IMG/VR virus record: IMGVR_UViG_3300048598_000287
Location: 32,001-96,000 of that record
Origin: a virus
Taxonomy: Duplodnaviria; Caudoviricetes
DNA: 64,000 bases
Reading direction: 5' to 3' (one strand)
Part shown: positions 4,800 through 32,448 of the stretch, one piece after another
How positions within the stretch are numbered: the stretch's first letter is position 1
Layout of the letters: each line of letters starts with the position of its first letter
Position numbers and translations under genes: made by a program
The notes under the pieces: generated by a model
Database searches by the model: none
Seen by the model: only the letters and a program-made list of their open reading frames with translations
What the model was told of the DNA's origin: nothing

Positions 4800-5009
4800 T
4801 TATTTTCCTGCTATGGCAGGCCATTTCACATCGGTTATCATGATGTGGATAATGGGAGATCCCTGGGAAATGGTCATGTTGGCGGTATAGTATGACGTTA
4901 CATTAGTGAGGATGGTACGTTCTTCAGATACATCGGTAATGGTGAACCATTCCTTAGCAAGTTTAGCATAGAACTCGGACTCGGTAGATGTTTTCATATA
5001 GATCCTCAT
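4800..5009 (-). CDS. Hypothetical protein, shorter paralog of 4340-4750
   Basis: See above. Confidence 0.6.
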   Translation of the reverse strand: MRIYMKTSTESEFYAKLAKEWFTITDVSEERTILTNVTSYYTANMTISQGSPIIHIMITDVKWPAIAGK

Positions 5010-5037
5010 GTTCGCTGACTGGCGGTATTCATTCTGT

Positions 5038-5241
5038 TCATATCATATGCTTCCGTTTATGGGCGATTAAATAGCCGAATAAATAATTTATTTTAGTTGA
5101 GCGATTGCCATTGACGGCATCTTTTGACAGGGCGGTTATTTCGTCGTGCAGGTTTATTTCTGCGTCATCATTGAAGTTGATGCTTAAAAACGGGATGGAC
5201 GACAGCGGCTTCTCGGAGAATTCAACTATGTTTCTTTGCAT
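5038..5241 (-). CDS. Hypothetical protein
   Basis: 67-aa ORF in operon context. Confidence 0.5.
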   Translation of the reverse strand: MQRNIVEFSEKPLSSIPFLSINFNDDAEINLHDEITALSKDAVNGNRSTKINYLFGYLIAHKRKHMI

Positions 5242-5256
5242 ACCATATAGTTTTCA

Positions 5257-5646
5257 TCAACAATCTTCGAAATTATACATCGGGTTCAGTTTCATATCCC
5301 TGATTTGTTTAGCATATTCTGCACGTTTATCAACAGTTCCATTAAACCAGTCGTCATACTTGCCATTTAGGCAGAGATCGCTAGTTCTACTATCAAGCTT
5401 AAACGGGCAGAAGTCACAGCGGGGATGTCTACATTTAGTATTCAAAATAGCTCTTACTTTAATGGCATAATCACAAGCATGGCATACAGCATCTCCTGCA
5501 TACTTCAACTCGTCAGGAAACTGCGCAAAATAATGCGATTTACAGTGCCACGGATGTTTGGCTAGCCAATCCCATAGCTTATAATGCAAATCATACCGGA
5601 AAGGAATATCTTTGATTTTATCAAGTTGTTCACTTGTTAATTTCAT
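5257..5646 (-). CDS. Cys-rich LWDWLAKHP family protein (paralog 3)
   Basis: CHAC...CDFCP...C; AAGGA RBS. Confidence 0.8.
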   Translation of the reverse strand: MKLTSEQLDKIKDIPFRYDLHYKLWDWLAKHPWHCKSHYFAQFPDELKYAGDAVCHACDYAIKVRAILNTKCRHPRCDFCPFKLDSRTSDLCLNGKYDDWFNGTVDKRAEYAKQIRDMKLNPMYNFEDC

Positions 5647-5724
5647 GATAACTATCCTTATAAGAAGTAAGCGGCGGAGTTTCCCGTTACGCTATTTATT
5701 GAAATATAGCTGATTATTAGATTA

Positions 5725-5925
5725 TCAACCGCCGCCAATAACATAATCGGAAAAATTTTCATATTCATGTATCGATAATCTACCCCAGTCATCGGGTTCA
5801 CGGCCCATCTTCTGCCTTATTTGTTCCATAGCTTCTTCTAGATCAGGTGCTATGGCAAATGCCAAGCCACATGTATAATCAGGGCAAAACTCATCCCATA
5901 CAAATAGCCGTAATTTACGTTTCAT
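5725..5925 (-). CDS. Hypothetical protein (LRLFVW domain)
   Basis: Homologous to the C-terminal half of 17884-18306. Confidence 0.7.
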   Translation of the reverse strand: MKRKLRLFVWDEFCPDYTCGLAFAIAPDLEEAMEQIRQKMGREPDDWGRLSIHEYENFSDYVIGGG

Positions 5926-5948
5926 CGTTATATTCCTTCATTATGGTT

Positions 5949-6431
5949 TTAATTCTGATTGGATTGTGATCTTTTAATCGCATCCCGAATTGTAGTAATG
6001 GATGCCGTACCAATCTTTAGTACATCTTTACCATCTATTTCCAGCAAAGAATCAGGTACTTGGTCATCTATGAGTAGAAATTCACCGGAGTTGTACTGAT
6101 TCTGGATATATGCTCTAAATGCTTCTGCTTTAGTATAGAAGTCTGACAATTCGGGATTATCAATATGTCGTCCTTCATGACCATTTTTATTCAAAATGGG
6201 TATCAACTCTTCTCTACTTTGAACGATATTAACTTTTTTACCGAAAAAAGACTCTATTTTAGGTCTGATCGACGTATTAAATAGATCCATATCTTCTTGA
6301 TTATAAATTGCGAATGTAAACAAATCTATACAATCCAATTGGTCTATTATTGGTTTAAGATCCGCAAAAATCTCAGGATTAAACCAAGAATCTATCAAAA
6401 CACCTTCTAGATCAAAAAACATGTGGTTCAT
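5949..6431 (-). CDS. HAD-superfamily hydrolase-like protein
   Basis: FFDLEGVL motif I variant; LIDD motif IV. Confidence 0.6.
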   Translation of the reverse strand: MNHMFFDLEGVLIDSWFNPEIFADLKPIIDQLDCIDLFTFAIYNQEDMDLFNTSIRPKIESFFGKKVNIVQSREELIPILNKNGHEGRHIDNPELSDFYTKAEAFRAYIQNQYNSGEFLLIDDQVPDSLLEIDGKDVLKIGTASITTIRDAIKRSQSNQN

Positions 6432-6494
6432 ATTTACCTCTTGATGTTAATATAGTAAATGGTCATGCGTTTAACAAGGGGATAACTACATTAA

Positions 6495-6896
6495 TTAAGT
6501 CTCTTTGAGATATTTAGAATTAATCCGGTTGCCATTAGAATCGTATTCGGCACAATATACGTATCCAGTGGAATGTTTTCTACGAATAATATTTCCTTTA
6601 GAATCATACCAGTCTTCTGATCCATTTGATGCCTTATAATGAACAAGTCGGCCCTGCTCATCATATTCATACCATTCTTTTAATCCGTCTGAATACTTCT
6701 TACGAATCATACGTCCATTAGAATCGTACCACTCTTCATATCCATCCGAATCCTTAGTATGGATCAGTTTTCCATCAAAATACCATCGTTCGTATCCAGA
6801 ATTATCCTTATCCCGAATAAGTTTCCCCTGGTATTCGGAAATCTTCCCACGGATCATTGAGATAGCATTTAGGATCTTGCTTATGATATGATTCAT
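6495..6896 (-). CDS. WYD-repeat (YD/MORN-like) protein
   Basis: Repeats of WYDxxGxxIHxKxSDG. Confidence 0.8.
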   Translation of the reverse strand: MNHIISKILNAISMIRGKISEYQGKLIRDKDNSGYERWYFDGKLIHTKDSDGYEEWYDSNGRMIRKKYSDGLKEWYEYDEQGRLVHYKASNGSEDWYDSKGNIIRRKHSTGYVYCAEYDSNGNRINSKYLKET

Positions 6897-6900
6897 TTAA

Positions 6901-7863
6901 TTAACTTCTTGTATTTTTACCTTTACTATTGACATCATAAAAATATTCGGTCCCGTCTGACCATTTTTCATGAATACTATTCCCATTGGCATCATTCCAA
7001 ATTTCAGAGCCATCGTAAAATTTGGTGTAAATACGGTTTCCTTGGTCATCATAGTCATACCAATATTCATCTCCAACGGAATCCTTATAATGAATCAGGT
7101 TTCTCTTATCATTGTATTCATACCACTTTTCTAATCCAGAATAATCCTTACAATGAATAAGATTTCTATTGGAATCATACCTCCATTCATCGCCATTAGA
7201 ATCCTTAGCATGAATAAGTTTACCTTTATTATCGAACCAGCTTTCAGCTCCTGTACTATCTTTCTTATGAATTACGTTGCCCTTAGCATCATACCATCGT
7301 TCTACTCCGTTGGGCCACTTCTCATGAATTATATTCTCATCGGAATCATACCAAAATTCATTACCATAGGAATTATTCACGTGAGTACCATTGATCGTTC
7401 CATTGGAATCATATTCATACCACTTATCTGCCCCGGTAGAATATTTTCTGTGAATAATATGCCTATCGGAATCAAACCAATATTCATCACCGTCGGAACA
7501 TATAGTGTGAATAGTATGTCCCTCAGCATCATATTCATGCCAACTCTCTAAGCCATCTTGATCCTTCTCATGAATCACGTTATTTTTATCATCATACCAT
7601 TTTTCAATTCCACCTGGAAATTTTGTATGAATGATGGTTCCCTTTGTATCGAACCATTCTTCGAATACATCGGAGAACTTAGTGTGAATCTTCTTCCCAT
7701 CTGAGTCATACTCATGCCAACGGTCAACACCATCTGAATGCTTCATATAAATGGTATTACCATCTTTATCATACTCATACCATTCTTCGGAACCATCTGA
7801 CCACTTCGTATGAATATTGTTACCTTCGCCATCGGATTCGCATTGAGTTTTTGAAATTTGCAT
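6901..7863 (-). CDS. WYD-repeat (YD/MORN-like) protein
   Basis: Made almost entirely of ~21-23-aa WY(EY)DxxGxxIHxKxSxG repeats. Confidence 0.85.
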   Translation of the reverse strand: MQISKTQCESDGEGNNIHTKWSDGSEEWYEYDKDGNTIYMKHSDGVDRWHEYDSDGKKIHTKFSDVFEEWFDTKGTIIHTKFPGGIEKWYDDKNNVIHEKDQDGLESWHEYDAEGHTIHTICSDGDEYWFDSDRHIIHRKYSTGADKWYEYDSNGTINGTHVNNSYGNEFWYDSDENIIHEKWPNGVERWYDAKGNVIHKKDSTGAESWFDNKGKLIHAKDSNGDEWRYDSNRNLIHCKDYSGLEKWYEYNDKRNLIHYKDSVGDEYWYDYDDQGNRIYTKFYDGSEIWNDANGNSIHEKWSDGTEYFYDVNSKGKNTRS

Positions 7864-8110
7864 ATTATTCTCCTATATTAATCAAATATAGTCAATTCGA
7901 TTGCGTTTCGCAATTATAAATGAAAATAATTGTTTTTTATCATTTTAACTAATCATATATGACTTAATACCCATATTTTATTACTTAAGTACTCATATAT
8001 GAATAATATAACCTTTCTAATTGATCTTAATCTTTTTCATTATTCCATATACAATTGGCATAAAATATTTTCACGGGCGCATCATCTATACTGATTCATC
8101 ATTTCTATCT

Positions 8111-8242
8111 GTCTAACATTGTTTTAACCTGCATTTGTGTTTTTTGCGCAGCAAAAAATTGGCGTAAAACTTGTGTGAAAAATCCGCAGGCTTTAGCACG
8201 TTTTATGACAAAACAAATGTCAGGTTGAAAACTGTGTTGGTT
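8111..8242 (-). mobile_element. Integron attC site, Treponema-like
   Basis: Minus strand: AACCAAC...TTTTCAACCTGACATTTGT...ACAAATGCAGGTTAAAAC...GTTAGAC; imperfect palindrome with two extrahelical bases and a GTTRRRY core, just downstream of the MTase stop. Confidence 0.8.
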
Positions 8243-8267
8243 GTTTTTTATGCAAGCAAAAATGTTT

Positions 8268-9164
8268 TTAATTCTTTTCAATATCAGATAATCGCTTTAG
8301 TGTCGTTTTATAATACTCTTTGTCTTGTTCAATCCCAATATACTTACGATGCAGCTTTAATGCTGCAACAAGTGTCGTCCCGCTACCACAAAACGGGTCT
8401 ACGACGATTTGATTTTCTGTTGTTGTTAATTCAATTAATAATTCCATAAGTTTTAATGGTTTTTGTGTCGGATGCAGTCCAGTATCAGAAGAGGAGGAAG
8501 AAATTGATATAATATTATTTGGATCAAGTCCATACTTAGCAAAAACCTTTTCATTATAGGCACCTACTTCATATTCAAGCATGTTGTCTGCTAAAGTACC
8601 TCCTATTTTATAAGGCTTCTGAAACCAAAGAATAGGCTCAAAAACAGGACGTAAATTTCCAAGTTTCCATCCTTCCCATTTTTCTGCAGACCCCTTATCT
8701 TCTCTTCGTTCATAAACAACACTTATTCTTTGTGCGCGATGAGCAGCTTTCACTTTATCCCAGGCGATCATATCTTTAAATGTAAATCCAGCATCTTCAA
8801 AAGCACATATACAACGAGGGGCAAGTCTTCGACCTGCAAAAACAAAAGCACTTGCACCAGGCTTTAAAACTCTATACCAATCAAACACCCATTCGGAAAC
8901 CCATTCATAATACTGCTTAGCAATCAGTTTATCTTCTTCTGACCATCCATTTAATGGCTTACCTCTTTTTTTAAATATATTACCTGCCTTTTCTTGTGCA
9001 GGACTTGAACCTAGTAATGCACTGTTTGTATTTGTATGCAAAACATCCCACGAATCGAAACTGATACCGTATGGTATATCACTTAAAATTAAATGAACTG
9101 AATTATCTTCAAGTTCTTTCATTTTCTGAATTGAATCAGCACAATAGACAGAATCAAATTTCAT
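8268..9164 (-). CDS. Beta-class N6-adenine DNA methyltransferase, M.HindIII-like
   Basis: SDIPY and DPFCGSGTT motifs; FKKRGKPLNGWSE, HRAQRIS and LRPVFEPILWFQKPY segments recalled from M.HindIII. Confidence 0.9.
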   Translation of the reverse strand: MKFDSVYCADSIQKMKELEDNSVHLILSDIPYGISFDSWDVLHTNTNSALLGSSPAQEKAGNIFKKRGKPLNGWSEEDKLIAKQYYEWVSEWVFDWYRVLKPGASAFVFAGRRLAPRCICAFEDAGFTFKDMIAWDKVKAAHRAQRISVVYERREDKGSAEKWEGWKLGNLRPVFEPILWFQKPYKIGGTLADNMLEYEVGAYNEKVFAKYGLDPNNIISISSSSSDTGLHPTQKPLKLMELLIELTTTENQIVVDPFCGSGTTLVAALKLHRKYIGIEQDKEYYKTTLKRLSDIEKN

Positions 9165-9210
9165 TTTAGCCTCTCAATGAATTTGTGAATTTAGTTATTG
9201 CTGGCATCTT

Positions 9211-9569
9211 GTACTTCGAATAGCTTATCGAACGTTTTCTTTTCATAAGTGCCTTACTTTTCAGCCTTCATAAGAATATTAGTAAATACCATCAATCCGG
9301 CAAAGAATAATCCTAATAGCATTATTACAACTAGCCAGCCAGATAATTCATTGGCCACTTGTATATTATTTAATAGCAGGTATAATCCCGTGCTAAGGGA
9401 TATAGACATCATCAAACTAGACATTACTAATTTCATATTGATTTCCTTAAGTTTTTACAATTAAATATACATAGAATTTATATTTTTCCACATGGTAAAT
9501 AGCAATATTGCTATTTACTTATCCAATGGGTTATAGTACCATGTATGATGTACTTCAGATATCCACTCA
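9211..9569. repeat. ~360-bp direct duplication of 12276-12634
   Basis: Near-identical sequence including a promoter region, the 60-aa membrane gene and the 3' end of 12580-13110. Confidence 0.9.
9254..9436 (-). CDS. Small two-TM membrane protein (copy 1)
   Basis: Two hydrophobic helices; near-identical to 12319-12501. Confidence 0.75.
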   Translation of the reverse strand: MKLVMSSLMMSISLSTGLYLLLNNIQVANELSGWLVVIMLLGLFFAGLMVFTNILMKAEK

Positions 9570-9713
9570 TGCCAACGTTCAACACTGTATCATAATGTTA
9601 CAGTAAAATGTAATTTATCAGAAGCAAGAGTTATTGACATCAATTTTATATTTCAATGGGATTTTAATGGTAACTTCGTCGGGATTATCGGTAGGCATCG
9701 CTACATATATTTC

Positions 9714-10631
9714 TTAATAATTTACCATTATGACTTCATGCGTTTCTGTGGATTTCTTTTTAGCTACTTTCTTGTAGTCGTATTCAAGTTCAATCATCTT
9801 GAACTTACCTGATTCCGACAGAAGATCCAGTAGCTTGCATCTTTCATCTCCATGGATGTCCGTTCCGGAAATCATCCATTTGGCATCGGAAAAATCGGAT
9901 ATGAACTTAAAAAGGCGTTCATCATCATTCTGTTTCCAGAATGCGTTATATCCCGCCTCCGTATTGGAATACGGTGGGTCTGCATAGAAGAATACATCGG
10001 ACATGTTTTGGACGCGCATGGAATTTGCTGAAACCGTTTCGAAATCACCCCAGATTATATCCACATTACGTATGGTTTTAAGAAGATTCCGCCACTCGGT
10101 GAGTTTCTTTTCCGTGGATTCATTGTACATACGTTTTCCGCAGGTCTGATTGAATAGCCCATGACGGTTGAACCTCATCATATTGTTTGTGCAGGACAGC
10201 ATGAGCCCGTACAGGCGGTAAGCCTTGTAATTAAGAAACGTGATCTTGTCGTTTATGTACTCCCCGCTTCCGGTAAAGTCGGATGTAAGAAGCGAATTGT
10301 ACTCATCCCGGAGAATCTGATATCTGTCATAGTCTGATGACGAGAACATTTTAAGGCACTCTATTAACCTTGCAAAATCAGTGTCGCTTCCTGTGGAGAG
10401 CACTTTCTGTATCCGTTGAATGTCAAATATATATTCATTAGATACCACATTTTTGAACATCCCTGCCAGATTGAATGACACCGTTCCTGATCCGCTGAAC
10501 AGATCAACAAGGGTCATATTATCAGTAGATTCCGGAAGATGTGCAACTAACTGCGGAAGAAGTTTGAACTTGTTCCCGGTGTAATTGAAAGGTGAATTAA
10601 CGTACATATGAATCCTTTGTGACAATGACAT
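9714..10631 (-). CDS. dam: Dam-family (T4 Dam-like) DNA adenine methyltransferase
   Basis: SPFNYTGNKFKLL, DLFSGSG, YADPPY. Confidence 0.85.
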   Translation of the reverse strand: MSLSQRIHMYVNSPFNYTGNKFKLLPQLVAHLPESTDNMTLVDLFSGSGTVSFNLAGMFKNVVSNEYIFDIQRIQKVLSTGSDTDFARLIECLKMFSSSDYDRYQILRDEYNSLLTSDFTGSGEYINDKITFLNYKAYRLYGLMLSCTNNMMRFNRHGLFNQTCGKRMYNESTEKKLTEWRNLLKTIRNVDIIWGDFETVSANSMRVQNMSDVFFYADPPYSNTEAGYNAFWKQNDDERLFKFISDFSDAKWMISGTDIHGDERCKLLDLLSESGKFKMIELEYDYKKVAKKKSTETHEVIMVNY

Positions 10632-10707
10632 ACTAAATATAGTAAATTATATTATTTTAGGTATAATATAAAAACAATGAAATCTGTGATCCTAACCCTA
10701 GAAATAA

Positions 10708-11154
10708 TTAAGGGAGCCTGGCTCCTTGAGATTCCAGGTATTCCACAACACCGAGATTCCCGTTCAGACTTGCACGGCGTATAGCATAGTTATTGTCATC
10801 AGTAACATCCAGTCCTTTGTCAACCAGCCACTTCCAGGTAGATAACTTAGATAAATCATGACGGTTTCCAAGGATTATATTTTCCGCCCGGTATTTAGAA
10901 TCCATCTTTACAACACGTTCGCCTTCAGGTAGAATTACTTCCCGGACATATACACTATCGAAATCATGCAAGTACAGTAAATGCATAACATCAGTGAAAT
11001 ACAGTCTAGATTGTGCTAATTCTTTATTGGTATCAGTATTACGTCCCGTCTTTAATTTTAACCCTTGATATGTTTCGGTGTCATTGGTAAACATTAAATA
11101 TACTGGATGTGTTTTCATATAGTACCTATACAAAAGATATTTTATATTGATCAA
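10708..11154 (-). CDS. Ankyrin-repeat protein
   Basis: GLDVTDDNNYAIRRASLNGNLGVVEYLESQGA ankyrin unit; N-terminal GxNTD...LYFTD...YVREVILP...KYRAENIILG domain. Confidence 0.75.
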   Translation of the reverse strand: MINIKYLLYRYYMKTHPVYLMFTNDTETYQGLKLKTGRNTDTNKELAQSRLYFTDVMHLLYLHDFDSVYVREVILPEGERVVKMDSKYRAENIILGNRHDLSKLSTWKWLVDKGLDVTDDNNYAIRRASLNGNLGVVEYLESQGARLP

Positions 11155-11269
11155 ATATAGTCAATTCGATTGTGTTTCGCGATTATAAATGAAAAATACT
11201 GGCATTTTCTCATTTTAAATAATCATCTATTGCTAAGTATAACAATAATGCTACATGTTTACCGGTGTA

Positions 11270-11995
11270 TTACTTGTTGGAAAGCTGCCATTCTACTAGG
11301 GATTTACCGTTGATATTTTTGTAGATATACTTGAATATACGGATATATCCGTCTTCGCTCTTTTCATAGATGCAATTCCCATTTGCATCATATTCATTCC
11401 ACCATTCTGATCCACGTGAATTTTTCTCATGAATAGTATTTCCTAGAGAATCACGGTCATACCATTTTTCGTATCCGTCGGCATCCTTATAGCGAATCGG
11501 CTTGCCGCTATCATCAAACCAATGTTCGGATCCGTTGGAATTCTTCGTATAGATCAGTTTTCCATTGGCATCACGTTCATACCAGCATTCGAATCCGTTC
11601 GACCACTTATCATGGATCCGATTTCCATGGCAATCATATTCGTGCCACCATTCGGATCCATCCGAACTCGTCTCATGAATTCTGTTTCCATTAGAATCAT
11701 ATGAATACCAACAATCGAAGGCTGGTACGAATTTAGTATGAATTAAGTTTCCTTTATCGTATTCGTACCACCTTGAGAATCCCACGGAATCCTTATCATG
11801 AATCAGGTTTCCCGTAGAATCATAGGAATACCACCGTTCATGTCCACTGGAGCAGGTAGCATGAATCTTATTACCATTGGAATCATATTCATTGTGAGTC
11901 CAGATATCGTAGCTATCACCGTTTAGGATAGCATTTCCTTTTACTATCGATACTTTAACTTCGGCTATCGTATCGCTGTTCTCGATACCGTTCAT
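11270..11995 (-). CDS. WYD-repeat protein
   Basis: Tandem WY(E/S)YDxxGNxIH repeats. Confidence 0.85.
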   Translation of the reverse strand: MNGIENSDTIAEVKVSIVKGNAILNGDSYDIWTHNEYDSNGNKIHATCSSGHERWYSYDSTGNLIHDKDSVGFSRWYEYDKGNLIHTKFVPAFDCWYSYDSNGNRIHETSSDGSEWWHEYDCHGNRIHDKWSNGFECWYERDANGKLIYTKNSNGSEHWFDDSGKPIRYKDADGYEKWYDRDSLGNTIHEKNSRGSEWWNEYDANGNCIYEKSEDGYIRIFKYIYKNINGKSLVEWQLSNK

Positions 11996-12318
11996 TTAAT
12001 TACCTATTTGGTTAAATCTTCCATTCGAATTCGTCGGAATGCTTCACATTACTAAGCGTTCCATTGACATCGTATTCGTGCCACCTATTTCTGGTTAATC
12101 ACTTTGCAGTACACTTCATAACATCGATTCGCTGCTTTCTCGCGTTCAGATGGACTTTCCCCGGCATCACCATATAGATTATCTATCTTAGTCATCATGT
12201 ATTCCACAGCATAACGCAAATCTACACATTTCTGCCTTAGCCAATTGCCATAGGAATCAGAATCCTTTATTTTAGGTACTTCGAATAGCTTATTGAACGT
12301 TTTCTTTTCATAAGTGCC

Positions 12319-12501
12319 TTACTTTTCAGCCTTCATAAGAATATTAGTAAATACCATCAATCCAGCAAAGAATAATCCGAATAGCATTATTACAACTAGC
12401 CAGCCAGATAATTCAGTGCAAGTTTGTATATTATTTAATAGCAGGTATAAGCCAGTGCTAAGGGATATAGACATCATCAAACTAGACATTACTAATCTCA
12501 T
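12319..12501 (-). CDS. Small two-TM membrane protein (copy 2)
   Basis: Duplicate of 9254-9436; AAGGAG RBS. Confidence 0.75.
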   Translation of the reverse strand: MRLVMSSLMMSISLSTGLYLLLNNIQTCTELSGWLVVIMLFGLFFAGLMVFTNILMKAEK

Positions 12502-12579
12502 TTCGATCTCCTTAAGTGTTTACAATTAAATATACATAGAATTTATATTTTTCCACATGGTTAATAGCAATATTGCTAT

Positions 12580-13110
12580 TTACTTATCCAATGGGTTATA
12601 GTACCATGTACGATGTACTTCAGATATCCACTCACTACCAGTCTCTCCATCTTCTTCAACGATCCAATTCACATCCGATGGAATACTCACTACCCTTAAA
12701 TGGATTCTGTTTTCTTCTAGAAATTTTTCATCCTTGGATTCTACTGCCTTTATAAGCTCAGGGTCTGTCCTAAGTACTGGGTTCATATCTAGGAATAAGT
12801 AGTTAGCATACGTTCTTTCCTTAGGTTGCACATATTTATCCCACAAGTCATGCACGCCCAACAGTGTGGCAGTATCCTCGTCAATTGAACTAGATCCATC
12901 GTGACCAATAATCACTTTAATTGTACCTACATCTTTAGATAAGGATAGATTATTTTTAAGTACCTTATGCGCATCAGAGCAATCAGAGAAACGATAATCT
13001 GGAAAGAATGTTTGATTAAGCCTAGTTGCTTCATCAAGGCATTGATTAAATAGTTGGCAGTCTTTGCATGTGGCATTAACCTCACTTATCATATAGCTCT
13101 CCTTAAACAT
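12580..13110 (-). CDS. Conserved phage hypothetical protein
   Basis: RTDPELIKAVE...LRVVSIP...EWISEVHRTW resembles a common phage family. Confidence 0.7.
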   Translation of the reverse strand: MFKESYMISEVNATCKDCQLFNQCLDEATRLNQTFFPDYRFSDCSDAHKVLKNNLSLSKDVGTIKVIIGHDGSSSIDEDTATLLGVHDLWDKYVQPKERTYANYLFLDMNPVLRTDPELIKAVESKDEKFLEENRIHLRVVSIPSDVNWIVEEDGETGSEWISEVHRTWYYNPLDK

Positions 13111-24655: not shown

Positions 24656-26209
24656 ATGGCTGAATTGACGATTGAAGAAGCAAGAAAGATCTACGCATCA
24701 TCGGATGATATGAAATCCCTGATGCTCACCAAATTCACTAAGGAAGACCTTGAAGAGGATTATACATCGTCCTCTTATGATAACCAGAATCACGGGCATG
24801 ATTCCCAGGGTAATGATTTTTGGTGCGATATCAATGGGAACGTAATTCATAAGAAAGCTCCAAATGGATTCGAAGCATGGTTCAATACAGATGGAAAAGT
24901 GATTCATAAGAAGCATTCTGACGGGTTTGAGGAATGGGTTGACTATGATTCTTATGGAAGAACTAATCATGTGAACGATTCCGATGGGTCAGAACGCTGG
25001 TACGAATACAATGCTAATGGGACAATATCACACGCTAAGTTTTCTGATGGGGAGGAATGGTGGTGCAATATCAATGGAAATAAGAGTCATTCCAAGTGGT
25101 CCGACGGATCCGAATCGTGGTACGATGCCAATGGAAATGACATTCATGGAAAAAATTCCGATGGATCGGAATGCTGGCATGATTTTGATAGCAATAAAAA
25201 ACTGATTCATAAGAAGTATTCCAATGGATTGGAAGAGTGGTATGATGCCACGGGGAATATGATCCGGTTGAAAGATTCCCTCGGATATGAAATGCGGTAT
25301 GAATATGATGCCAATGGCCACCTCATGCGCGAGAAGGATTCCTTAGGATGGGAAAAGTGGTGTGAATATGATGCCAACGGGCATCTGATTCACTCAAAGG
25401 ATTCAAATGGATTCGAACGGATGCATGAATATGCTACCGATGGGCACCGCATTCATGAGAAGGATTCGGACGGGCGCGAAAAATGGTATGATGCCAATGG
25501 AAAAATCATTCATTCTAAGTCTTCCGACGGAGTAGAAAAGTGCGAATCATGGTTCGATACCAATGGAAAACTGATTCACTTGAAATGTTCCGACGGTTTC
25601 GAATATTGGTATGATGCCGATGGGGAACTGATCCATTATAAGGATTCCGACGGAGATGAATATTGGTATGATGCCATAGGAACCCTTATGCATAAGAAGA
25701 TTTCCGATGGATCAGAAGAATGGTATGAATATAATGCTAATGGAAGGCTAATTTATGCAAATAATTCCGATGGATTTGAATCTTGGTATGAATATGGAGC
25801 CAATGGGCGAATGATTCATAATAAGACTTACGATGGATCAGAAGAATGGTATGCTACCGATGGGCACCGCATTCATGAGAAGGATTCGGACGGTTTCGAA
25901 TATTGGTATGATGCCAATGGGAATATCATTCATGAAAAGGATTCCGATGGATCAGAAGGTTGGCGGGATTTTGATAACAATAAAAAATTGATTCATAAGA
26001 AGTATTCCGACGGATTAGAACACTGGTATGATGCCAATGGGAACGTAATTCATAAGAAAAATCCAAATGAATTAGAATATTGGTGGAAATATGATGCCGA
26101 TGGGAAATTGAGTAATGAAATATGTTCTGATGGGTCAACCCGATGGTATTCTTATGATGCCCATGGGAATATGATTCATATGAAGATTTCCAATAGAACA
26201 TCTATTTGA
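24656..26209 (+). CDS. MAELT leader fused to a long WYD-repeat domain
   Basis: 517 aa, about 20 repeats; internal DNA duplication at 25431/25851. Confidence 0.9.
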   Translation: MAELTIEEARKIYASSDDMKSLMLTKFTKEDLEEDYTSSSYDNQNHGHDSQGNDFWCDINGNVIHKKAPNGFEAWFNTDGKVIHKKHSDGFEEWVDYDSYGRTNHVNDSDGSERWYEYNANGTISHAKFSDGEEWWCNINGNKSHSKWSDGSESWYDANGNDIHGKNSDGSECWHDFDSNKKLIHKKYSNGLEEWYDATGNMIRLKDSLGYEMRYEYDANGHLMREKDSLGWEKWCEYDANGHLIHSKDSNGFERMHEYATDGHRIHEKDSDGREKWYDANGKIIHSKSSDGVEKCESWFDTNGKLIHLKCSDGFEYWYDADGELIHYKDSDGDEYWYDAIGTLMHKKISDGSEEWYEYNANGRLIYANNSDGFESWYEYGANGRMIHNKTYDGSEEWYATDGHRIHEKDSDGFEYWYDANGNIIHEKDSDGSEGWRDFDNNKKLIHKKYSDGLEHWYDANGNVIHKKNPNELEYWWKYDADGKLSNEICSDGSTRWYSYDAHGNMIHMKISNRTSI

Positions 26210-31941: not shown

Positions 31942-32448
31942 TCAGCACGTTTTGCATACCGCCGCTACATTAGTGATGTACCGTTTAATTATTTCCACCA
32001 CAGTTGATTCACACCCGTCGCACATTATCTCCGGAACATATGATTCATATACTCCGTCAGTAAGAATGAAATTTTCAGCCATTCCTGACATTATCAGGTC
32101 TTTTCGATACAATTCCTTTTCCGTCACCCGTTTAACAAAGACGAGCTTGCCATCTACGGATATCATGGGAAGGAAGAGCCATAGATTTCTGATGAATGGT
32201 GATCCCCCATCGTCGGAGAAGGTATCCATATAAATAATTTCAGTCTCTCCGGGAGAGAACATGTTTTCCGGTACATGCTTCTGTGTAAGGCACATGGCGA
32301 ATCCGCATTCCCCGGGGGATATTATCCTGGGCGTCCATTTTCCCTTCTTTATGGGGACAGTTACGCCAAGCTCTGACATGGATTTTATGGGATCTTCTGA
32401 AAGACCGCATGACCGGCAAAGAGACAGTATGCTTTCTATAAGGTTCAT
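31942..32448 (-). CDS. Hypothetical protein
   Basis: Probable start MNLIES coupled to the upstream stop. Confidence 0.6.
   Translation of the reverse strand: MNLIESILSLCRSCGLSEDPIKSMSELGVTVPIKKGKWTPRIISPGECGFAMCLTQKHVPENMFSPGETEIIYMDTFSDDGGSPFIRNLWLFLPMISVDGKLVFVKRVTEKELYRKDLIMSGMAENFILTDGVYESYVPEIMCDGCESTVVEIIKRYITNVAAVCKTC

Follow-up and report, generated by a model that had tools for sequence, protein, structure and literature searches.

A probable fragment of a Treponema-type integron cassette, carrying an orphan HindIII-type methylase gene and an attC site, in the genome of a giant wastewater phage

How did an AT-rich DNA methyltransferase gene, followed directly by a long imperfect palindrome, come to be part of a phage genome? 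This question is raised by the locus at 8111–9210 of the stretch of DNA analyzed here (the window), which comprises 64,000 nucleotides and corresponds to positions 32001–96000 of the IMG/VR virus record IMGVR_UViG_3300048598_000287. A preliminary description had read the locus as an integron cassette captured by the phage, with a HindIII-like methyltransferase gene and an attC site, and had taken it to point to a spirochaete host. The record is a single contig of 277,197 bp, with an estimated completeness of 66%, and its source is a giant phage. Its predicted products include a family-B DNA polymerase, a pair of RNA ligases, TnpB, a terminase-large-subunit-like protein and many YD/RHS-repeat proteins, and the window alone encodes three DNA methyltransferases. 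Sequence near-identical to the contig is present in wastewater metagenomes of many studies. A megablast comparison of window positions 5000–13000 with 50,697 phage records returned no match, and an Rfam search of the window returned no family. The YD/RHS-repeat ORFs of the window (6495–7863, 11270–11995 and 24656–26209) contain periodic repeats of 57–63 nt, and as many joints between repeat units are found in wastewater contigs, this region appears to be highly recombinogenic or variable.

The methylase gene occupies 8268–9164 on the minus strand and encodes a protein of 298 aa that matches the PF01555 (N6_N4_Mtase) profile with an E value of 1.9e-49 over positions 1–219 of its 221, with intact catalytic motifs IV (DIPY, residue 29) and I (FCGSGTT, residue 258). 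Its GC content is 35.5%, which equals that of the donor-like contig L007, is below the 40.9% of the phage contig and lies within the lowest 4% among the 900-nt windows of the latter. Of 5.8 billion proteins searched, the nearest two to the methylase share 97% and 94% amino acid identity with it, the former being P0001 (contigs L007 and L008) and the latter being encoded by L006 and L133–L136. Each of these relatives lies 1 nt behind a RE_HindIII (PF09518) gene in a bacterial-looking contig, and the nuclease of L007 aligns over its full length with R.HindIII of Haemophilus influenzae (PDB 3A4K; E 2e-67, ~50% identity), which bears out the description of the methylase as HindIII-like. Several named homologs from Treponema and Spirochaetaceae are ~70% identical. 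On the basis of its profile match and its homologs, we assign the product as an orphan M.HindIII-type N6-adenine DNA methyltransferase. The homologs have 305 aa, the difference in length reflecting the loss of 1 nt late in the phage gene, which alters its last seven codons only. At three further homolog loci (L001–L003) no attC site follows the methylase gene, and the Treponema metagenome-assembled genome (MAG) that holds L003 has Xer-like recombinases only and no integron integrase.

In contrast to its relatives with 94–97% identity, in which the nuclease gene is linked to the methylase gene, the phage itself keeps only a remnant of such a nuclease. Window positions 9203–8192 have 93% nucleotide identity to L007, and the match begins at 9203, so that it takes in the final 38 nt of the nuclease gene; translations of 9166–9203 likewise match the 3′ end of that gene. 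The remnant (about 9166–9203, minus strand) thus comprises the last 11 codons and the stop codon of a HindIII-type restriction endonuclease (AITKFTNSLRG*). In L007 and L008, the nuclease gene is preceded by an attC site that scores 35 bits (E 4e-5) with the covariance model R1 described below, and a weaker long-type attC site of 19 bits, with a ~55-nt deletion in its center, is found behind the methylase gene. Because an attC site is also present upstream of the nuclease gene, we regard the restriction (R) and modification (M) genes of L007 as a two-gene cassette. Since the blastn homology starts inside the nuclease gene and 11 of its codons are kept, the phage appears to hold the 3′ 1.09 kb of such an R-M cassette, with an undeleted attC site and no nuclease. 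A whole unit running from a TTRRRY left boundary to the attC site is not what is found, as the nuclease gene is cut off at the left end. The earlier claim of a cassette captured from an integron stands with regard to an integron origin, but what is present is the 3′ part of a two-gene R-M cassette with 11 nuclease codons and not the whole of it.

The palindrome occupies 8111–8242 (132 bp, minus strand) and, as had been described, is imperfect, with extrahelical bases and a GTTAGAC core. Based on the covariance model, its identity to array sites and its fold, it represents an attC site of the Treponema-family long type. The site starts 25 nt downstream of the methylase stop (stop at 8268, R″ at 8242) and has the same orientation as the gene. 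Read on the gene strand, R″ (AACCAAC, 8236–8242) is followed, after a 3-nt spacer, by L″ (GTTTT-C-AACCTG-A-CATTTG, about 8214–8232), a branched and variable center located between L″ and L′, L′ itself (CAAATG-CAG-GTT-AAAAC, about 8121–8137), a spacer AAT and R′ (GTTAGAC, 8111–8117), all on the minus strand. Inverse core sites AAC/GTT are thereby present at both ends of 8111–8242, and these AAC/GTT pairs are invariant in 89 distinct members of the family. When the site is folded, the extrahelical G8227 and T8220 form single-base bulges 6 bp apart on the plus (bottom) strand, the same spacing of extrahelical bases as in the aadA7 attC site. It is the bottom strand that folds best, with −31.5 kcal/mol and a z of −4.3 (DNA folding), and 0 of 200 shuffles folded as well. 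No second copy of the palindrome was found in the 277-kb contig, and no integron integrase (TIGR02249) was found in it either, so that the absence of an integrase first noted for the window extends to the whole contig (about 66% complete). The contig thus has neither a complete integron nor a CALIN, and with one match to R1 and no match to TIGR02249 it carries a single, SALIN-like attC site.

Comparisons with bacterial integron arrays place this site in a particular attC family. A search for the integron integrase (TIGR02249) in 251 genomes from the family to which a Treponema MAG belongs gave scores over the curated cut-off in 76 of them. The 20 kb on each side of ten integrase genes (loci L033–L052) were then inspected, and one-sided, AT-rich repeat arrays with a repeat spacing of about 0.8–1 kb were present beside eight of the ten, with repeats that read like the window site (e.g. 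..CTAAC-AACTGC-TTCAACCTGAC...GCAGGTTAAGCAAATGTTAG). In the arrays L033, L036, L039, L041, L044, L050 and L052 most cassettes open with a short GC-rich hairpin immediately after R′ (e.g. GGACGCCCGCACTGGGGCGC). The covariance model R1 was made from 47 distinct long-type attC sites in the arrays of three Treponema-family genomes, with the window left out. Over the whole 277-kb contig R1 gave one match, at 8113–8240 (minus strand), which is full length, has a score of 61.2 bits (E 2.5e-11) and aligns with only 2 non-standard pairs; the next best match had an E value of 2 or more. At the attC site, the gene strand scored 61 bits versus 15 bits for the other strand. The site is thus accepted by a model specific for its family. 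A scan with fixed motifs, which permitted up to 5 mismatches per end, had overlooked it owing to 6 mismatches in the 5′ motif, and a covariance model was needed for its detection.

The structure of the attC family is well defined, as 98.8% of the pair cells among the 89 distinct members are standard pairs, versus at most 41% for slid partners, and compensatory changes occur at 17 of the 30 pairs. Over its whole length, the window site is 86–90% identical to array sites in the genomes G333, G370 and G386, and it is up to 93% identical to array sites in 31 metagenome contigs. The similarity is always confined to 8238–8107 and stops at the GTTAG core, as would be expected of a cassette boundary. 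A metagenome search with a pattern spanning the junction between the methylase 3′ UTR and the attC site gave 0 matches. Matches to R1 were found in 52 of 151 Treponema-family genomes versus none of 151 genomes from the phylum to which a Lentisphaeria MAG belongs. The likeness to Treponema attC sites pointed out in the preliminary description is thus borne out. In length, too, the window site agrees with the long type of 115–132 bp that Wu et al. (2013, PMC3607928) reported from T. brennaborense and T. succinifaciens, its 132 bp matching the long sites of the latter species.

The edges of the foreign DNA are marked by phage repeats. Upstream of the insert is D5 (9211–9569, minus strand), an intergenic module with a 60-aa ORF (9254–9436), whose second copy at 12276–12634 is 95% identical over 359 nt; the two copies diverge exactly at 9210/12275. 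The module also carries a perfect 24-nt palindrome at 9495–9518. Between D5 and the nuclease remnant are 7 nt (AAGATGC, 9204–9210, minus strand) that, when both copies of D5 are aligned with L007, can be ascribed neither to the phage nor to the donor, and a GTT/GWT core is absent from this upstream junction. Downstream, the attC site is separated from the repeat D9 by an AT-rich stretch of 150 nt (7961–8110, minus strand; 26.5% GC). It is identical in sister strains, but neither the rest of the phage contig, nor 401 Treponema-family genomes, nor the 31 metagenome array contigs contain anything that matches it. This stretch could be the start of the donor’s next cassette or phage DNA, and because no relative with an empty insertion site was found, the downstream edge of the foreign DNA is placed at either 8110 or 7961. 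D9 itself (7874–7960, minus strand) is the upstream region of the next gene (6901–7863) and has a second copy at 11143–11230 with 87.5% identity over 88 nt. The D5 and D9 modules bracket what look like exchangeable slots, one with the methylase block and the paralogous one with a YD/RHS-repeat gene.

A neighboring gene for a Dam-type (D12) methylase (9714–10631, minus strand) has 94.6% nucleotide identity to positions 53–955 of L010, a GC-richer and otherwise unrelated viral contig. The similarity does not extend beyond the gene, and the Dam gene therefore represents a further exchanged methylase module. L010 was considered as a relative that lacks the insert and was rejected, as the Dam gene alone is common to both.

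We consider it probable (roughly 0.85) that the locus, from 7961 or 8111 to 9210, derives from part of an integron cassette of bacteria and has become fixed in a giant phage genome. We infer both the direction and the route of this capture. The donor would have been a Treponema-family bacterium, or a close source, with a HindIII-type R gene and then an M gene in one two-gene cassette ending in a long-type attC site. Of this cassette, 11 codons from the end of R would have been retained in the phage together with all of M and an entire attC site, between its own repeated intergenic modules. The attC site itself would be a passenger, but one that is structurally intact and could still serve as a substrate for the integron integrase of a host.

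The spirochaete host proposed in the preliminary description is supported by the distribution of the attC family, by the ~70% identical homologs from Treponema and Spirochaetaceae and by the setting of a chromosomal R-M copy with a 94%-identical M, whose flanking ndk (88% nucleotide identity) and gpsA (77%) are syntenic to a Treponema-family genome. On balance, a Treponema-family host for the phage is somewhat probable, and the proposal is a reasonable one, although it is not secure. The alternative, which we consider less probable but which still merits serious attention, is that the block came from a Treponema-type integron into a phage that does not infect spirochaetes, with the DNA having arrived via another phage or mobile element or via a host of another phylum. 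It would accord with the presence in the same phage of two GC-rich elements with attC-like 3′ ends, for which there was no match in 401 Treponema-family genomes. These elements (L060:10790–10945 and L060:15860–16027, the latter on the reverse strand; about 205.6 and 210.8 kb of the contig) are two inverted copies of about 113–145 nt with 80% identity, which end in ..GCAGGTTAGCTAGTCGTTAGGC and ..GTGAGTTAGTTAGTCGTTATGA, that is, with GTTAGGC and GTTATGA; they look like the L′-spacer-R′ ends of a different attC family, and no matching 5′ arm was seen. The closest named relatives of the phage TnpB (13525–14721) are from Synergistaceae and would fit the same alternative, but at ~35% identity this search was uninformative as a clue to the host. 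Against a non-spirochaete host are the 86–93% identity of the attC site to array sites and the R-M copy located beside ndk and gpsA in Treponema-family synteny. In addition, the mostly synonymous nature of a 224-nt patch of strain variation, described below, suggests later recombination with another functional allele, and this attC type occurs in at least five other viral contigs, where a methylase gene either precedes one of the sites or lies within the array.

A second alternative relates to the route of entry. The integron integrase of the host could have inserted a circular R-M cassette by recombining the attC site of the cassette with a secondary site of the attG type (GWT) on phage DNA undergoing replication. 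The result would have been a SALIN from which the nuclease gene and the left junction were later deleted. The intact attC site and the end of its similarity to array sites at the G|TT core are in keeping with this route, as are the documented insertion of cassettes outside att sites (bioRxiv 10.1101/2022.09.11.507474) and the multi-cassette arrays of the same attC type in other viral contigs. However, the left junction lies in the nuclease gene and has no GTT, so that a second event, a deletion, must be assumed, and the AGA after the GTT matches the consensus of the donor family, as would fit a fragment that runs past the crossover point. We regard this route as unlikely. Joining that was not site-specific would account for the cassette fragment more simply than insertion by an integrase with subsequent loss of the nuclease gene.

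Far less probable is a misassembly that joined bacterial DNA to the phage, for which the flanking repeats D5 and D9 might be held responsible, as repeats can mislead assemblers. Four wastewater runs, each belonging to a different study, provided contigs for comparison with this stretch, and pieces from the runs X1, X2 and X6 span the D5/insert junction, the junction between the attC site and the downstream DNA, or both, with independent wastewater contigs covering 7916–9259, 8200–9569, 8024–8229 and 8047–8261. The contigs of run X3 leave 8003–8670 uncovered, and nothing is drawn from that gap. Moreover, L137, a 9.9-kb contig from another sample, has the same gene order as the window. Least probable of all, and in our view refuted, is a chance resemblance to attC, with the palindrome serving as an ordinary terminator or as a regulatory hairpin of the phage, since, although it follows the stop codon closely and attC sites can be weak terminators (PMC9892861), its AT-rich stem leads into AGATAGAAATG with no T-run, unlike the GC-rich stem plus T-run of an intrinsic terminator, and it has both a full-length covariance-model match (E 2.5e-11) and ~90% identity over 128 nt to sites repeated in arrays beside intI genes.

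Sister strains provide information on the history of the insert within the phage. Three contigs from three other samples (L137, L138 and L139) have 100% identity to the window across both junctions, and the 1-nt deletion in the methylase gene is common to all. They differ from the insert of the window only in a 224-nt patch at 8321–8544 (89.7% identity), which has 17 synonymous and 4 non-synonymous codon differences. Because the differences in the patch are mostly synonymous, they suggest gene conversion or a later exchange with another functional allele. One of the non-synonymous differences is Q252*, which in the three sister strains truncates the methylase ahead of motif I, and some strains at least can therefore do without the gene.

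With regard to function, we propose that the methylase is transcribed by read-through from the upstream phage module and that it modifies the adenine in AAGCTT on the phage DNA, a specificity suggested by its family membership. The phage contig has 101 AAGCTT sites versus 95 expected from a Markov model (observed/expected 1.07). These sites are not depleted, and evasion of HindIII-type cleavage through the loss of sites is therefore not seen in the phage. If expressed, an orphan methylase of AAGCTT specificity would protect the phage, as methylation would shield its 101 sites from the HindIII-type nucleases of hosts.

The locus is part of a wider pattern. Exact-pattern scans of IMG/VR identified 22 viral contigs with this attC type, many of them with small arrays. 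An N6_N4 methylase gene is located directly in front of an attC site in at least four of them (L066, L068, L076 and L078) and inside an array in L072; L068 also encodes a portal protein, a terminase and DnaB, and L086 encodes a T7-type head-tail connector protein. The Treponema-type attC sites in such IMG/VR contigs (e.g. L068:11795–12729 and L078:5119–7709) are often in arrays with a spacing of ~300 nt, and L078 has two direct repeats with GTTAT cores upstream of its methylase gene. A more far-reaching idea is that phages of Treponema-family bacteria routinely use the chromosomal integrons of their hosts as a store of anti-restriction genes, the kept attC site being a live docking site at which the host integrase moves cassettes in and out of phage DNA during its replication. 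We consider this idea decidedly unlikely, but if true it would account for the single sites and small arrays in unrelated viral contigs, as well as for the adjacency of methylase gene and attC site in the four contigs above and the methylase gene within the array of L072.

Our findings also bear on how captured cassettes may be used. The attC family was lineage-specific in the samples searched (52/151 versus 0/151 genomes), and captured cassettes could therefore be used as tracers of hosts or donors for uncultured phages. The locus is an unusually legible case of what appears to be a phage disarming a host defense, as the attC site and the nuclease stump together reveal where the methylase came from and what was lost. 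It represents further evidence that chromosomal integrons, long held to be sedentary, exchange DNA with viruses, a principle that has already been published.

Several known systems provide points of comparison. The HindIII R-M system of H. influenzae (PDB 2E52/3A4K) has a beta-class N6-adenine methylase of the same type and the same order of R and then M, whereas the phage retains M alone, with a specificity predicted from its family. Orphan methyltransferases that phages have acquired from the R-M systems of their hosts likewise consist of a methylase without its nuclease, in phages whose target sites are not depleted; the difference is that here the attached attC site reveals by what probable route the methylase originated, namely from an integron cassette. 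The chromosomal integrons of Treponema share the attC family of the window site, with AAC/GTT cores, a protruding G and long sites, but their arrays are sedentary and, according to Wu et al. (2013, PMC3607928), have no association with mobile elements, whereas the window copy is in a virus. SALINs, as defined by Loot et al. (bioRxiv 10.1101/2022.09.11.507474), are single isolated cassettes of bacterial genomes, whose origin was put down to insertion by the integrase at GWT sites. The phage locus is similar in being one isolated cassette-type ORF with an attC site and without an integrase or other att sites nearby, but its recipient is a phage and its upstream junction is unlike that of an integrase-driven insertion.

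The closest counterparts are the integrons and attC clusters (CALINs and cassettes) identified in 21 phages by Qi et al. (2023, PMC9892861), so that phage-borne attC sites and methylase cassettes are already known from published work. In that study, five of six tested phage attC sites recombined with attI1, and five phage cassettes encoded DNA methyltransferases, including N6_N4_Mtase, which were read as anti-restriction cargo. As in those phages, attC and cassette DNA is present here in a phage genome with no nearby integrase; in contrast to them, there is one attC site, whereas at least two were required in that study. The contribution of the present locus lies in its lone attC site within a giant phage from wastewater, as yet uncultured, in a donor attC lineage that can be named and in a restriction-gene stump that appears to record the disarming of an R-M cassette.
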